NCBI GenBank assembly: GCA_045110695.1
Contig: JBGCGH010000043.1
Location: forward strand, 12,755 to 76,754
Direction: 5' to 3'
From: Bdellovibrionales bacterium
GTDB lineage: Bacteria; Bdellovibrionota; Bdellovibrionia; Bdellovibrionales; UBA840
Length of the DNA: 64,000 nucleotides
A program made the translations under genes and the position numbers. Below, one piece after another: positions 56,795-62,976 of the stretch. Every line of letters begins with the position of its first letter. Positions within the stretch are counted from its first letter, which is position 1. The notes under the pieces are model-generated. The model had not been told where the DNA came from and ran no database searches. It saw only the letters and a list, made by a program, of their open reading frames with translations.

Positions 56795-56974
56795 AAAAAG
56801 ACTCCTTTGAATAAGAAGACTTTCTAGCAGGTTTCAGCCTGAAAATCTGCACTACATATAAAGTTTACTGAAAAGAGAGCTTCTTCTGAGCTCCAAATTG
56901 ATACATTTGAGCCTATAATGCATTGCGGAAACTATCAGACTAAAGGCGGACCAGAAAAAATCCGAAAAGAAGTC

Positions 56975-57421
56975 ATGGCAGCGGCAAAAAAACCTAAAAC
57001 TACTCAATATGGTGTGACTCAGGCCTTGGAAGCCTTAAGTCATGTGGACCAGAAAACTCGAGAAAGCATCATGAAAAACCTTGCGGTTCTTGATCCGGAA
57101 GTGGCCAGAGAACTGGATGAAAAGATGTTAAGGTTTGAAGACCTTGTTTTAATGAATCACTCCGGCTTACAGAGTTTTATGAAGGAAATTGAAGACAAAA
57201 AATTAGTATTAGCTCTTAGAGGAGCCAGTCCAGACTTACTGAAGAAGATTTTTTCTTGTTTTTCGAAGAGAAAAGTCCAGATGTTGGGTGAGGATATTAA
57301 AAACTTAGGACCACAGCCTTTATCAAAGGTGGAGGAAGTCCGATCAGAAATAATGAAAGAGGCCAGAGTTTTTCTCGAAGCGGGAAAAATGGTGATCTCA
57401 ACAAGTGAGGAGGTAGTGTGA
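56975..57421 (+). CDS. Stand-alone FliG C-terminal domain-like protein
   Basis: Start placed at MAAAKK (ATG 56975). MLRFEDLVLMNHSGLQSFMKEIEDKKLVLALRGASPDLLKKIFSCFSKRKVQMLGEDIKNLGPQPLSKVEEVRSEIMKEARVFLEAGKMVI aligns by eye with the E. coli FliG C-terminal domain (MFVFEDL...ALKGA...RAADILRDDL..RGPV.LS.VE......GEMVI). Confidence 0.65.
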   Translation: MAAAKKPKTTQYGVTQALEALSHVDQKTRESIMKNLAVLDPEVARELDEKMLRFEDLVLMNHSGLQSFMKEIEDKKLVLALRGASPDLLKKIFSCFSKRKVQMLGEDIKNLGPQPLSKVEEVRSEIMKEARVFLEAGKMVISTSEEVV

Positions 57422-57750
57422 AGACTTTTATGATTATAGCTATGTTTCTAGCCAGCCCTTTTCTTTTTGCGAAATCAGACTTTGTAGAAAGCTACCGTCT
57501 TAATACCAAAGATTTACATGTTTACGATTTAAGTGATAAAACCAAAAGACAGTTTGCGGAAAAAACTAAAAGAGTTCCTGCCAATGCCTCTGGCTACTAC
57601 CCAGTGCTTTTTGGTGCGTTTCAGGATCAAAATATATATTTAAACCAAAGTCTTTGGTTTCAAGAGCTGGAATGTGAGAGTCTAAATGTGAGAGAGTATA
57701 AAGACCAGTTTGATTGCTTAAAAGCAACTAAATTTCGTATGCTAAAATAA
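57418..57750 (+). CDS. Small secreted hypothetical protein
   Basis: Signal peptide MIIAMFLASPFLFA (probable start ATG 57430). Overlaps the stop of the FliG_C-like gene. Confidence 0.45.
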   Translation: MKTFMIIAMFLASPFLFAKSDFVESYRLNTKDLHVYDLSDKTKRQFAEKTKRVPANASGYYPVLFGAFQDQNIYLNQSLWFQELECESLNVREYKDQFDCLKATKFRMLK

Positions 57751-57849
57751 TAGAAAAACTAAAATAATATCTTAGATGAACTCTATATTATGTAGAATTC
57801 TTTTGACCTATTCAACGATTTTGGGTGCAATAAGCTTTCAAAAGGGGAG

Positions 57850-58278
57850 TTGGCTTTGGTTTGGAATATATATAGTGCGCTATTGGGTGGAGCGATTATA
57901 GGTTTAAGTGTGTCTATCATGCTTTTGTTTAATGGGCGAGTCACTGGAATAAGTGGAATAGTTAAAGGTCTTCTAAGTCCCATAAAAACCGATATTTCGT
58001 GGCGGCTCTTGTTCGTTCTAGGCTTAGTTCTAGGGGGATTTGCCATGAAGATGTTTGGCTTTACTCTTTATTCTGAACTAGAGGTTATTGGTCGGTGGCA
58101 AGTTATTATAGCTGGTTTTATTGTAGGAGTAGGAACTAGTCTCGGAAGTGGTTGTACTAGTGGGCACGGTGTTTGTGGGATCTCGCGGCTATCCACCAGA
58201 TCTATCATTGCCACTTGTACATTTATGGCTACGGGCTTTACTACTGTTTTTATTTTACGCCTTTTAGGTGGTCTTTAA
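57850..58278 (+). CDS. YeeE/YedE family (sulfur-transport-related) membrane protein
   Basis: [12 protein letters not shown] motif, 4 hydrophobic helices. Start uncertain (TTG 57850 or 57856). Confidence 0.7.
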
Positions 58279-58709
58279 TGAAAACGGGAATTATTAGTTT
58301 TGTTGTTGGTTTCGTGTTTTCTATCGGCTTAGTTGTTAGCGGAATGACCCAACCGGAAAACATTATAAATTTTCTTGATCTGACAGGAAATTGGGATCCA
58401 AGCTTAGCCTTTGTGATGATCGGGGCTATTGGCCTTCACTTTTTTACTTTCAAATGGATATTAAAAAGAAAGAGTCCATTGTTTGCAAACAAGTTTATGG
58501 TGCCTTCTAGATCCGACATTGATAAAAATCTTTTACTAGGTTCTGCCCTTTTTGGCATAGGTTGGGGACTGGGCGGTCTTTGTCCGGGCCCTGCTATCGC
58601 TTCTTTACTTGATGGATCACTAGAGCCAGTACTTTTTGTTGGATCTAGTCTACTTGGAATGTTTGTCGTAAATATTTTAAAACCAAAACCTTTGGGAGAA
58701 AAAGGATGA
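58278..58709 (+). CDS. YeeE/YedE family membrane protein (partner half)
   Basis: Start moved to [12 protein letters not shown] (TAATG overlap at 58278). GIGWGLGGLCPGPA motif. Confidence 0.7.
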   Translation: MKTGIISFVVGFVFSIGLVVSGMTQPENIINFLDLTGNWDPSLAFVMIGAIGLHFFTFKWILKRKSPLFANKFMVPSRSDIDKNLLLGSALFGIGWGLGGLCPGPAIASLLDGSLEPVLFVGSSLLGMFVVNILKPKPLGEKG

Positions 58710-59563
58710 ACGTAAAAAGTTTTTTTGACCCAGATACCTTCACTTTAAGCTATGTAGTGTTTGAAGAAGGATCCAAAGATTGTATTATTATTGATCCAGT
58801 TTTGGATTATGATCCAAACTCTTCTTCTACTTCAAAAGAGAGTCTAGAGAAGCTCTATAAATATCTTTCCAGTCAGTCTCTAAGTCCCACTCATATTTTA
58901 GAAACTCACGCCCATGCGGATCATTTAAGTGGTGCTATAGAAATTAAAAAACGCTTTCCAGAGGCAAAACTTGGTATTGGTGAGAATATAACGAAAGTTC
59001 AAGATGCATTTAAAAACGTCTACAACTTACCTGAAGAGTTTCTAACAAATGGCTCTCAGTTTGACCTTCTTTTTGCAGATGGTGAGCTTCTGGAGACGGG
59101 CGGTCTTAGGATTGAGGTTTTACATACTCCTGGGCATACTCCTGCCTGTGTTTCTTATCTGATTAACAAGGAACATCTTTTCGTAGGTGATACCCTTTTT
59201 ATGCCAGATTATGGTACTGGTAGGTGCGATTTTCCAGGTGGAAGTGCTGAAGACTTATATACATCTATTAGCGCAAAGCTTTATAGTCTTCCTGATAATA
59301 CAATTGTATACACAGGTCACGATTATCAGCCCGAAGGACGAGAGCTCCAGTTTAAATCTACTATCGGAGAGCAAAAGTCAAAGAATATTCAGCTTCAATC
59401 CAGTACATCCGCTCCGGAGTATATTGAGTTCAGAAAAACAAGAGATGCAGGTTTAAAAACTCCCAGGCTTTTGTTGCCAAGTATTCAAGTAAACATCGAT
59501 GGGGGAAATTTGCCTCCTGCGGAAGCTAATGGAAAAAGATATTTAAAGATCCCTATTGAATAG
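58706..59563 (+). CDS. MBL-fold persulfide dioxygenase-like protein (ETHE1/Blh type)
   Basis: ETHAHADHLSGA (HxHxDH), HTPGHTPACVSY, GDTLFMPDYGTGRCDFPGGSA, YTGHDY. 4-nt overlap with the upstream gene. Confidence 0.75.
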   Translation: MNVKSFFDPDTFTLSYVVFEEGSKDCIIIDPVLDYDPNSSSTSKESLEKLYKYLSSQSLSPTHILETHAHADHLSGAIEIKKRFPEAKLGIGENITKVQDAFKNVYNLPEEFLTNGSQFDLLFADGELLETGGLRIEVLHTPGHTPACVSYLINKEHLFVGDTLFMPDYGTGRCDFPGGSAEDLYTSISAKLYSLPDNTIVYTGHDYQPEGRELQFKSTIGEQKSKNIQLQSSTSAPEYIEFRKTRDAGLKTPRLLLPSIQVNIDGGNLPPAEANGKRYLKIPIE

Positions 59564-59584
59564 GAAGCTAAGTAGTTTTAAATT

Positions 59585-59675
59585 TGAAAACTGAAAACTG
59601 AAAACTGAAAACTGAAAACTGAAAACTGAAAACTGAAAACTGAAAACTGAAAACTGAAAACTGAAAACTGAAAAG
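59585..59675 (+). repeat. Heptanucleotide tandem repeat (TGAAAAC) x12 perfect + 1 imperfect (TGAAAAG)
   Basis: Counted directly: units start at 59585+7k for k=0..11, and the last unit 59669-59675 has 1 mismatch. The repeat ends 1 nt before GAGG (59677-59680) and 10 nt before ATG 59686. Confidence 0.98.
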
Positions 59676-59685
59676 CGAGGCTGCA

Positions 59686-60045
59686 ATGAAGAAAGAGCTA
59701 GAAAATATCCAAGTGACAGAAGATGGTGTGCCAGAAATAAGGGTTAATGATCTTCATGCGATGGATACAAAGCCACTCCTTATTGATGTTAGGACATCTT
59801 CAGAATACTCTGGAGAGCTTGGGCACATTGCAGATTCAGAACATTGTGAGCTTGGTCCTGATCTTGAGAAGCGCATTACAGAACTAGAAAAAGAACAGTC
59901 CGTAATCTTTGTTTGTAGGTCCGGTAAACGCTCGGCCAATGCAACATTATTTGCAAGACAGCAGGGGATAGAATCTTCCTATAATATGCAAGGGGGCATG
60001 CTCGAATGGAATGAGTCTGGTTTTCCCATTGTAAAAGAATCTTAA
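59686..60045 (+). CDS. Rhodanese-domain sulfurtransferase
   Basis: 119 aa. LIDVRT..EY..GHI, active-site loop FVCRSGKRS, GG...W. Confidence 0.85.
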   Translation: MKKELENIQVTEDGVPEIRVNDLHAMDTKPLLIDVRTSSEYSGELGHIADSEHCELGPDLEKRITELEKEQSVIFVCRSGKRSANATLFARQQGIESSYNMQGGMLEWNESGFPIVKES

Positions 60046-60094
60046 AAACTCGTCCCTGTAATCCAACCAGGGGTAGGAAGACAATTTTTATGTT

Positions 60095-60137
60095 TTTCGA
60101 CCCAGATCGTCGAAAGCTTGTTTTTGATTTTTCTTAA
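60095..60137 (+). terminator. Probable rho-independent terminator after the rhodanese gene
   Basis: Stem TTTCGAC (60095-60101) and GTCGAAA (60109-60115), followed by gcttgtttttgattttt. Confidence 0.5.
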
Positions 60138-61915: not shown

Positions 61916-62013
61916 GACCCCTCCTAAAACTTAAAGCAATTCAGTAGCTTAGATAGCAGAAGTCTATTTTTATCTATTTGTTTTGTATAGTGAAAAAAGA
62001 AATTAACAAATAC

Positions 62014-62055
62014 GCTGAGCACTCTCAAAAGACCCCCCCAGAGAGAGTGCTCAGC
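62014..62055. promoter_or_regulatory. 13-bp perfect inverted repeat about 100 bp upstream of hmgA (candidate operator or hairpin)
   Basis: GCTGAGCACTCTC (62014-62026), 16-nt spacer aaaagacccccccaga, GAGAGTGCTCAGC (62043-62055). Confidence 0.4.
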
Positions 62056-62223
62056 CTAGAAGTTGAAACGTATCAATTCGCCCCGATTAGGACTCTTCTT
62101 GGGTAGTTTATAATTTATCTTTGGAGGAAATAGAAATTATAAGTTTTGTGGGACGCTATAAGTCATATTTATTTTGCGGGTTTTTTGGGCTAAGAGTTTT
62201 TGGGTTTGGGTATTGGCAGTCGA

Positions 62224-62350
62224 CCTCTTCTTTATTCTAATTTCAAACTAAAGCTGGCTTGTCCGTGCTCAGACAGTCCTCCTCGCGGGGCTCGTGCGGA
62301 ACTGCGCGCGGACAAGCCAGCTTTAGTTTGAAATTAGAATAAAGAAGAGG
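62224..62350. repeat. REP-like palindromic element: 42-bp perfect inverted arms around a 43-bp GC-rich core. This is the uninterrupted paralog of the IS target.
   Basis: 62224-62265 (cctcttctttattctaatttcaaactaaagctggcttgtccg) is the exact reverse complement of 62309-62350. The core 62266-62308 contains gctcagaca|gtcctcc. Confidence 0.9.
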
Positions 62351-62540
62351 GCTCTTTTCTTGGAATTTATGATGGGGGGGAAGTGAAAGGATGGTGATGG
62401 GGTGGTGGTGTTTTGGGACTGGTGGGGGGGGGGTGTGTAGAAAGTATAGGGTTGGTTGCTTGTTTATTGGGGGATGGGAGTGAGAAGGGGGTGGTTTTGA
62501 TTGGGGTGGTGGCATAGGGATTGCTGTATTAAGGGGTAGA
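62351..62540 (+). repeat. G/T-rich, C-depleted low-complexity tract with G7 and G10 homopolymers
   Basis: By my count only 7 C in 190 nt. G7 at 62374-62380, G10 at 62424-62433. Run pattern GGGGG-at-GGG-agtgagaa-GGGGG-tggttttgatt-GGGG at 62469-62506. Confidence 0.85.
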
Positions 62541-62559
62541 GCCGAACAAGGAGGCCATA

Positions 62560-62709
62560 ATGACACTGAAGAAATGGATAATTGCTGGATTTGCTTTAGG
62601 GATGATTGGGTTTGGAATTAGTATGAAATCTAATACACAAGAAGTGAGTGTAGTTAAAGATGTGGAGAGCAGCCGTACGCTGGCTTGTGTTCCTTGCTCC
62701 TCTAAATAG
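62560..62709 (+). CDS. Small membrane/secreted peptide (49 aa), below the ORF-track cutoff
   Basis: MTLKKWIIAGFALGMIGFGISMKSNTQEVSVVKDVESSRTLACVPCSSK. Strong SD AAGGAGG 5 nt upstream of the ATG. Hairpin terminator 70 nt downstream. Confidence 0.5.
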   Translation: MTLKKWIIAGFALGMIGFGISMKSNTQEVSVVKDVESSRTLACVPCSSK

Positions 62710-62777
62710 ATTGAGATTTTCAGTTCGACTTTAATGTCTTGCTGTTAAACTGTGCAAAAACTGTGAGTGTTTATACC

Positions 62778-62802
62778 GGGGCCTTTTAGGCCCCATTTTT
62801 TT
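62778..62802 (+). terminator. Rho-independent terminator
   Basis: GGGGCC-tttta-GGCCCC followed by attttttt. Confidence 0.75.
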
Positions 62803-62976
62803 AGAGTTGATTAGCTTCTACTCAATCCGAATTATGAATTTCTTTGTAGGGTGCATTATCTAGTGCCTTCCTTTTTAGTCTAGGTTATCTCATTATCATT
62901 AACAATCGAACCCCTATAGCGACCGGGATTTTGAATGAAGGACAAGCTATGGGGCACATAAAAAAGGAGCCAAACA

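Follow-up and report, generated by a model that had tools for sequence, protein, structure and literature searches.

The stretch of DNA analysed here (64 kb in its entirety, hereafter the window) belongs to a metagenome-assembled genome (MAG) of the Bdellovibrionales and contains a four-gene operon, of which the first three genes encode the two halves of a YeeE/YedE-like transporter and an MBL-fold hydrolase, and the last a rhodanese-domain protein. The 122-nt gap between the stop codon of the MBL gene (TAG at 59561-59563) and the ATG of the rhodanese gene is the only real spacer of this operon, the other genes overlapping, and it is largely filled by a tandem heptamer array. The features of the locus are as follows:

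57803..57831, plus strand: candidate operon promoter (TTGACC-17 nt-TGCAAT), read by eye from the sequence and unreported by the scanning tool
57844-57849, plus strand: GGGGAG, between the candidate promoter and operon gene 1 (sequence)
57850..58278, plus strand: Sulf_transp protein, first YeeE/YedE-like half, operon gene 1; translation may in fact begin with the TTG at 57856 (Pfam, ORF)
58278..58709, plus strand: DUF6691 protein, corresponding to the second YeeE/YedE-like half; start codon overlapping the stop codon of gene 1 (TAATG) (Pfam, ORF)
58706..59563, plus strand: MBL-fold metallo-hydrolase, 285 aa; its ATG overlaps the preceding stop codon (ATGA) (Pfam Lactamase_B, ORF)
59552..59564, plus strand: 5-bp hairpin CCUAU-UGA-AUAGG across the MBL stop codon (predicted fold)
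59585..59668, plus strand: 12 perfect tandem TGAAAAC units (sequence, TRF, shuffle test)
59669..59675, plus strand: degenerate unit 13, TGAAAAG, 6/7 matches (sequence)
59677..59680, plus strand: GAGG, Shine-Dalgarno (SD)-like, 1 nt past the array and 5 nt ahead of the rhodanese ATG (sequence)
59686..60045, plus strand: single-domain rhodanese protein of 119 aa, encoded at the end of the operon (Pfam Rhodanese, ORF)
60094..60126, plus strand: terminator-like hairpin (TTTCGAC...GTCGAAA) followed by a T-run, 3′ of the rhodanese gene (scan, sequence)

Neither a promoter-like (sigma-70-like) nor a terminator-like site was found in the MBL-rhodanese gap by a scan covering one promoter type, which is why co-transcription of the four genes together with the array is the simplest reading. 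An SD-like 4-mer precedes approximately half of the window's long ORFs. In many relatives, the genes for the MBL protein, the YeeE/YedE halves and, sometimes, the rhodanese lie together, in variable order; thus, the set constitutes a conserved sulfur-handling module. The split of the transporter into two overlapping ORFs (57850-58709, with the TAATG junction) also recurs in many relatives, and in several (L081, L083, L085) a Crp/Fnr-family regulator is encoded beside it; none is adjacent in the window. Directly upstream of the sulfur operon (56918-57750) lies a gene for a 167-aa protein that comprises solely a FliG C-terminal domain, overlapped by a following 110-aa ORF, the product of which matches no Pfam family and has an N-terminus resembling a signal peptide. 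On the far side of the operon, a gap of ∼1 kb (61916-62976) separates a homogentisate dioxygenase gene (minus strand) from ssb (plus strand); it has no match in Rfam and contains no convincing ORF, a proline-rich 107-aa ORF on the minus strand looking spurious.

Extent and rarity of the array

When the sequence was re-read, 12 units of TGAAAAC with zero mismatches were counted (59585-59668), which in the register used in the literature corresponds to (AAACTGA)12 at 59588-59671. The order 3′ of the array is C, GAGG, CTGCA, and the ATG at 59686, so that the last perfect unit ends 17 nt and the degenerate unit 10 nt from the rhodanese start codon. The initial annotation, which had described 12 perfect copies plus one 6/7 unit ending 1 nt ahead of GAGG, was therefore exact to the base, and its statement that the array fills most of the 122-nt gap is equally accurate (91 nt, or 75%). 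TRF delimited the repeat at 59585-59674 (period 7, 12.9 copies, 100% matches, score 180) and ranked it, by a wide margin, as the strongest of the 64-kb window. Matches to the 14-mer numbered 12, compared with at most one in each of 100 dinucleotide-preserving shuffles. The array was also the sole perfect repeat in the window with at least four copies of a 4-12 nt unit; neither a second NAACTGA doublet nor an inverted copy of the unit was present there.

Beyond the window, no close counterpart of the locus was encountered in the collections searched. The next-best homologue of the MBL protein among 5.8 billion proteins was 64% identical and encoded in a different gene order, exact-protein look-ups for the rhodanese and the MBL protein returned zero records, a locus-specific 23-mer had zero matches in metagenomes, and the MBL-to-rhodanese junction was found in none of 80 related genome loci. 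These 80 loci (∼650 kb) contained two perfect repeats with at least four copies of a 4-12 nt unit, TGAAAAC being the unit of neither, and a TGAAAAC array was absent from all of them. The search for the same heptamer at further loci, which the initial annotation had recommended, consequently returned nothing from the window or from the 80 related loci. The presence of only one array in 64 kb, together with its absence from the related loci, makes it unlikely that the element serves a whole regulon in this lineage.

Relation to published heptamer repeats

The array consists of 57% A. Its forward strand contains UGA in all three frames (KLKTEN*), and its reverse strand is free of stop codons (SVFSFQF). 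The only ORF across it, 47 aa on the minus strand, was rejected as an artefact of this stop-free reverse strand. The spacer RNA was predicted to be less structured than its shuffled counterparts (MFE −12.5 versus −16.2 kcal/mol, z = +1.31), with the SD and AUG of the rhodanese gene unpaired and the 5-bp hairpin at the MBL stop codon as the sole pairing in the centroid structure; the fold of the spacer's reverse strand was unremarkable. For (AAAACTG)12, an MFE of 0.0 was obtained on both strands, a property shared by 5 of 30 necklaces of the same composition and also by TAACTGA. Rfam gave zero matches in the operon, even at E ≤ 1, and a single tRNA was the only RNA gene found in the whole window. 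The earlier description of the array as an A-rich, unstructured RNA spacer thus agrees with the predicted fold, as does, given the intergenic position, the earlier point that a change in copy number would not shift a reading frame.

These properties are those of a class of direct repeats with the unit TAACTGA, described from marine Beggiatoaceae, Thiocystis, Cyanobacteria, and some Bacteroidetes (MacGregor 2015, PMC4679880). TAACTGA repeats are intergenic and oriented forward toward a start codon situated a few to tens of nucleotides downstream; the corresponding RNA is unstructured in either orientation, with stop codons in the forward frames and open reverse frames, and up to 43 copies occur in some genomes, upstream of unrelated genes without a functional theme (PMC4679880). 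Binding of S1, Csp or CsrA to these repeats was proposed (MacGregor 2015, PMC4679880). In the Beggiatoa-like BOGUAY genome, there are 169 TAACTGA sets, ∼90% of cases being without an SD; AAACTGA is listed in Table 3 of the same study with the same predicted properties, but only as four doublets in BOGUAY (PMC4679880).

The array of the window likewise lies in intergenic DNA on the sense strand, runs forward, and ends close upstream of the rhodanese ATG. Its pattern of forward stops in three frames and an open reverse strand is identical to that given in Table 3 of PMC4679880, and, as for the published repeats, the RNA is predicted to be free of structure (for 12 units, an MFE of 0.0 on either strand; z = +1.31 in context). 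It differs in its unit, AAACTGA, which matches TAACTGA at six of seven positions; in its host, a Bdellovibrionales MAG outside the taxa reported for TAACTGA repeats; in its position inside an operon; and in being followed by a normal SD, which ∼90% of the BOGUAY cases lack. Furthermore, the 64-kb window contains a single NAACTGA array, in contrast to the 169 sets per genome in BOGUAY. By its sequence, the array is best classified as a heptameric long SSR, the unit of which departs from that of the TAACTGA-type direct repeats by one base. It represents a published and widespread class of heptamers rather than a new type of switch; what is new are the unit variant, the host lineage, and the intra-operon position, the properties of the class having been published already. 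The initial annotation had referred to the 7-bp repeats upstream of the hmw genes of Haemophilus influenzae as the precedent, which did not hold (see below), and had overlooked the closer TAACTGA-type repeats (PMC4679880).

Intergenic heptameric long SSRs are also known from Xanthomonas (GGGAATC) and Nostoc (GGGGA(T/C)T), where they vary extensively in length and sequence among close relatives and sometimes occur in inverted arrangements; (GGGGATT)26 between pecE and pecF of Nostoc is an intra-operon example (Rehm 2015, PMC4692102). As summarized in that paper, which cites Mrazek 2007, heptamers are over-represented among bacterial long SSRs, and this is attributed to polymerase slippage (PMC4692102). 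With 12.9 copies at 100% matches in a 122-nt intergenic gap, the array of the window qualifies as such an LSSR; it shares with the Xanthomonas and Nostoc arrays the (near-)perfect tandem heptamers confined to intergenic DNA, operon interiors included, but their units are G-rich and capable of forming G-quadruplexes, whereas the one described here is A-rich and predicted to be structure-free. The STRR repeats of cyanobacteria are a further case for comparison beside these two.

Occurrence and turnover of the unit at other loci

JGI metagenomes were scanned for at least five copies of TGAAAAC and viral contigs for at least four. Arrays were found in at least 120 metagenomic stretches and in 21 viral stretches, the latter corresponding to 16 loci after dereplication by flanks. 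Among the matches listed, the arrays had between 4 and 16 perfect copies, and the GC content of the host contigs ranged from 0.21 to 0.69, which indicates that the arrays are not a mere by-product of AT-rich genomes. At least 12 copies were present in 6 of 129 listed arrays with five or more (a figure biased by the ends of short-read contigs), which places the array of the window in the upper tail. AAACTGA was found interleaved with TAACTGA within single arrays (L117, L120, L122); the flanks also mix in CAACTGA and other variants, and many arrays stop just ahead of an ATG.

Among the matches listed, 135 of 154 arrays were intergenic (by crude ORF calling), and the 3′ ends of arrays abutted gene boundaries across metagenomes. 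Within 30 nt of a gene boundary, start-facing arrays were mostly forward (27:9) and end-facing ones mostly reverse (43:17), again among the matches listed. The start-facing bias was significant overall and in high-GC contigs, where it amounted to 18:4; in contigs below 50% GC it amounted to 9:5, which is not significant. The biases in position and orientation hint at selection on placement, but are suggestive only, because of the lack of significance in the low-GC contigs and because the ORF calls were crude longest-ORF calls. Of the 51 listed arrays that had the start of a forward ORF no more than 60 nt away, 10 carried an SD-like motif; the array of the window thus belongs to a minority with the order array-SD-ATG. 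The genes downstream have diverse housekeeping functions (among them PEP carboxylase, chorismate synthase, CysRS, a subunit of ATP synthase, and thymidine kinase); a functional theme, sulfur metabolism included, was not found among the matches listed.

How common the unit is was compared with same-composition controls in the viral contigs. Dereplicated loci numbered 16 for TGAAAAC and 19 for TAACTGA, versus 5 for AAAAGTC, 9 for AAAATGC, 3 for AAAAGCT, 0 for AAAACGT, 6 for AAAATCG, and 5 for AACAGAT, that is, 0-9 for the six controls (mean 4.7), which makes TGAAAAC about three times commoner. Four of the controls self-pair strongly; the other two, AAAAGTC and AACAGAT, are structure-free and yet ∼3-fold rarer than TGAAAAC, which rules out lack of structure as the full cause of the unit preference. 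NAACTGA units are therefore modestly preferred beyond their lack of structure.

Two sets of related loci allowed arrays to be compared. The first comprises four near-identical phage contigs, the differences between which are indels of 8-22 alignment columns inside the repeat tract. In this family (L096:1265-1480, L098:3130-3340, L101:1025-1235, L109:6965-7165), the array comprises 4-6 perfect units with a higher-order GAAAAACTGAAAATC repeat 5′ of them, and lies ∼19 nt upstream of a 102-aa ORF. The second set is defined by a contig of a Wenzhouxiangellaceae-like gammaproteobacterium (L202:1-131), in which (TGAAAAC)≥10 is situated upstream of the gene for PEP carboxylase (PEPc), and by four further contigs encoding 82-89% identical PEPc (L292:1380-1503, L293:1-195, L294:1230-1503, L295:1170-1503). 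At the orthologous sites, the following were found: (GGAAACC)2; (CCGAAAC)2 together with an 8-mer array, (GTTCTTTT)7; degenerate remnants; and, at another, 11 exact copies of an AGGAGTC-type heptamer with (GGAAATC)3. All of the arrays upstream of PEPc end 51-60 nt from the ATG, beside a conserved gcgtctaccatg box. The array site thus persists upstream of PEPc, with both copy number and unit sequence turning over. Such turnover is a prediction of slippage with concerted evolution, and the change of unit is difficult to reconcile with a conserved sequence-specific reader.

Arrays of this kind do turn over by slippage, at the phage and at the PEPc loci. The earlier claim that perfect arrays of this length are prone to slipped-strand changes is therefore borne out for the TGAAAAC unit elsewhere, by the phage indels and by the changes in copy number and unit at the PEPc sites. 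Its companion, that the perfection of the array implies recent expansion or selection, does not require selection, as slippage itself homogenizes arrays. The PEPc pattern argues against a fixed sequence-specific reader and in favor of a structure-free spacer that is tolerated or selected; the persistence of the array despite unit turnover constrains the explanations for why heptamers are the favored bacterial long SSR. In their behavior, AAACTGA arrays resemble the published TAACTGA repeats, but their range extends far outside the taxa listed in 2015: they are present in a MAG of the Bdellovibrionales, in a gammaproteobacterium resembling Wenzhouxiangellaceae, on contigs of phages, and on metagenomic contigs of 21-69% GC.

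Interpretation of the array at the rhodanese gene

Taken together, the array is probably, if by no great measure, a hypermutable SSR of the NAACTGA kind that is maintained by slippage and co-transcribed with the operon. In the transcript, it would be a passive and open stretch rich in A that functions as a leader or as a standby region for ribosomes, its effect, if any, being graded. Replication slippage would have created the array and would keep its units homogeneous; its copy number would therefore be expected to vary by 7-nt steps within the population, as at the orthologous loci elsewhere. Once transcribed together with the sulfur operon, the open leader could keep the rhodanese RBS accessible and uncouple translation of the rhodanese from that of the three translationally coupled upstream genes. 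The effect on rhodanese translation would be mild and graded at most, rather than switch-like. The array would be tolerated at this place because it brings along neither a hairpin, nor a mimic of a start codon or SD, nor an antisense stop problem. A purely passive model does not explain the ∼3-fold preference over the structure-free AAAAGTC and AACAGAT. For the source genome, the array carries little weight: it is probably a hypervariable site and an assembly-fragile spot, and it may have a modest influence on the operon's final gene.

It is possible, though rather unlikely, that the array is a neutral by-product of slippage which expanded in the only non-coding space available, has no effect on expression, and will decay. 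Its absence from the 80 related loci and its being the only such array in 64 kb would fit, as would the orthologous sites elsewhere, which change their unit, shrink to two copies, or leave degenerate remnants. The lack of a functional theme among the downstream genes in the matches listed, and the general over-representation of heptamers among long SSRs, attributed to polymerase slippage (PMC4692102), point the same way. Neutrality alone, however, would account neither for the ∼3-fold enrichment of the unit over controls of the same composition that are equally structure-free, nor for the biases in position and orientation among the matches listed, nor for the retention of an array site upstream of PEPc in relatives with 82-89% identical PEPc; in addition, the array of the window halts exactly short of the SD.

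A sequence-specific role, in which the heptamer would recruit a protein that controls the rhodanese gene, is distinctly unlikely. The candidates fall into two groups: ssRNA- or ssDNA-binding proteins (ribosomal protein S1, or one with a cold-shock domain), with each heptamer taking up one molecule, and DNA-binding regulators of the ToxT/ToxR/H-NS type. The former corresponds to the proposal of MacGregor for the TAACTGA repeats (PMC4679880) and would be consistent with the enrichment of NAACTGA over the controls and the forward bias of start-facing arrays. The latter has a precedent in the TTTTGAT heptads of ctxAB in Vibrio cholerae, promoter DNA upstream of the −35 region that is bound by ToxT, ToxR, and H-NS and varies in copy number between strains (bioRxiv 10.1101/2021.05.14.444153). 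In both cases, an AT-rich heptamer is tandemly repeated upstream of a gene, but the array of the window lies between co-oriented genes of an operon, and no sigma-70-like site was found within, beside, or after it in the gap (by the scan for one promoter type), which, as far as that promoter type goes, weighs against a role at the DNA level. For Nostoc PCC7120, binding was speculated upon at recF/recO, and a translational role for (TTCAAAA)3 upstream of recF (bioRxiv 10.1101/2022.06.06.494920). Those heptamers also contain A4 and lie less than 100 nt from starts or promoters of unrelated genes; in contrast to the array described here, the unit is another one and is present in only 3-8 copies. 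Against any conserved reader stands the fact that orthologous sites keep the array and yet change the unit sequence; furthermore, only one array is present within 64 kb, and the normal SD of the rhodanese gene makes special recruitment unnecessary.

A bolder variant, regarded as quite improbable, is that NAACTGA arrays are a cross-phylum leader module, spreading horizontally or selected convergently, which is read by OB-fold proteins and in which copy number acts as a translation dial. The structure-free RNA with stops in all frames would then be read by S1 or a cold-shock-domain protein, with each domain occupying one heptamer. If true, the copy number, driven by slippage, would provide a heritable and reversible setting for the rhodanese, independent of the rest of the sulfur-detoxification operon.

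Very doubtful, too, is contingency tuning by analogy with hmw, in which the copy number in the leader would switch or grade the rhodanese and be selected as bet-hedging. In H. influenzae, the (ATCTTTC)n repeats upstream of hmw1A and hmw2A, which encode surface adhesins, cause phase variation via a long hairpin in the 5′-UTR, in which ∼10 repeats pair with a G-rich arm and which is cleaved by RNase III (PMC12721329). As there, a heptamer SSR is located directly upstream of a start codon, the hmw repeat region being transcribed and its copy number changed by slippage, and TGAAAAC arrays do vary in copy number between close relatives (phage contigs). The hairpin is nevertheless ruled out for the window: the spacer is predicted to form no stable structure, and the complementary arm is missing, as is an inverted copy of the array. 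The mechanism put forward in the initial annotation thus lacks its repeat:G-rich arm, and it also lacks the kind of gene, as the 119-aa single-domain rhodanese is a cytoplasmic sulfurtransferase that ends a metabolic, sulfur-handling operon and not a surface-exposed contingency factor; other contingency loci were not evident in the window.

That short-read metagenome assembly made or distorted the array is hardly credible as far as its presence is concerned, despite the source being a MAG and many metagenomic contigs breaking at such arrays, since it lies inside an 82-kb contig and is bordered on either side by unique coding sequence, which renders its presence secure, since TGAAAAC arrays occur in more than 100 independent assemblies, and since reads of ordinary length can cover 91 nt. 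The figure of exactly 12 copies, being the assembler's consensus, is uncertain.

Metagenomic contigs often begin or end inside (TGAAAAC)n (L121:6-117, L202:7-76, L206:7-97, L154:2-36, L163:2-43), with up to 16 copies at the contig edges. Such arrays are thus common assembly breakpoints, so that copy numbers from short reads are lower bounds. Some metagenomic arrays occur as inverted heptamer pairs, (GTTTTCA)n-short loop-(TGAAAAC)n (L137:1928-2018, L139:1182-1254), and in one (L114:3800-3990), (GGTTCAG)n and its complement (CTGAACC)n are separated by (TGAAAAC)8 as the loop; all three represent long potential hairpins.
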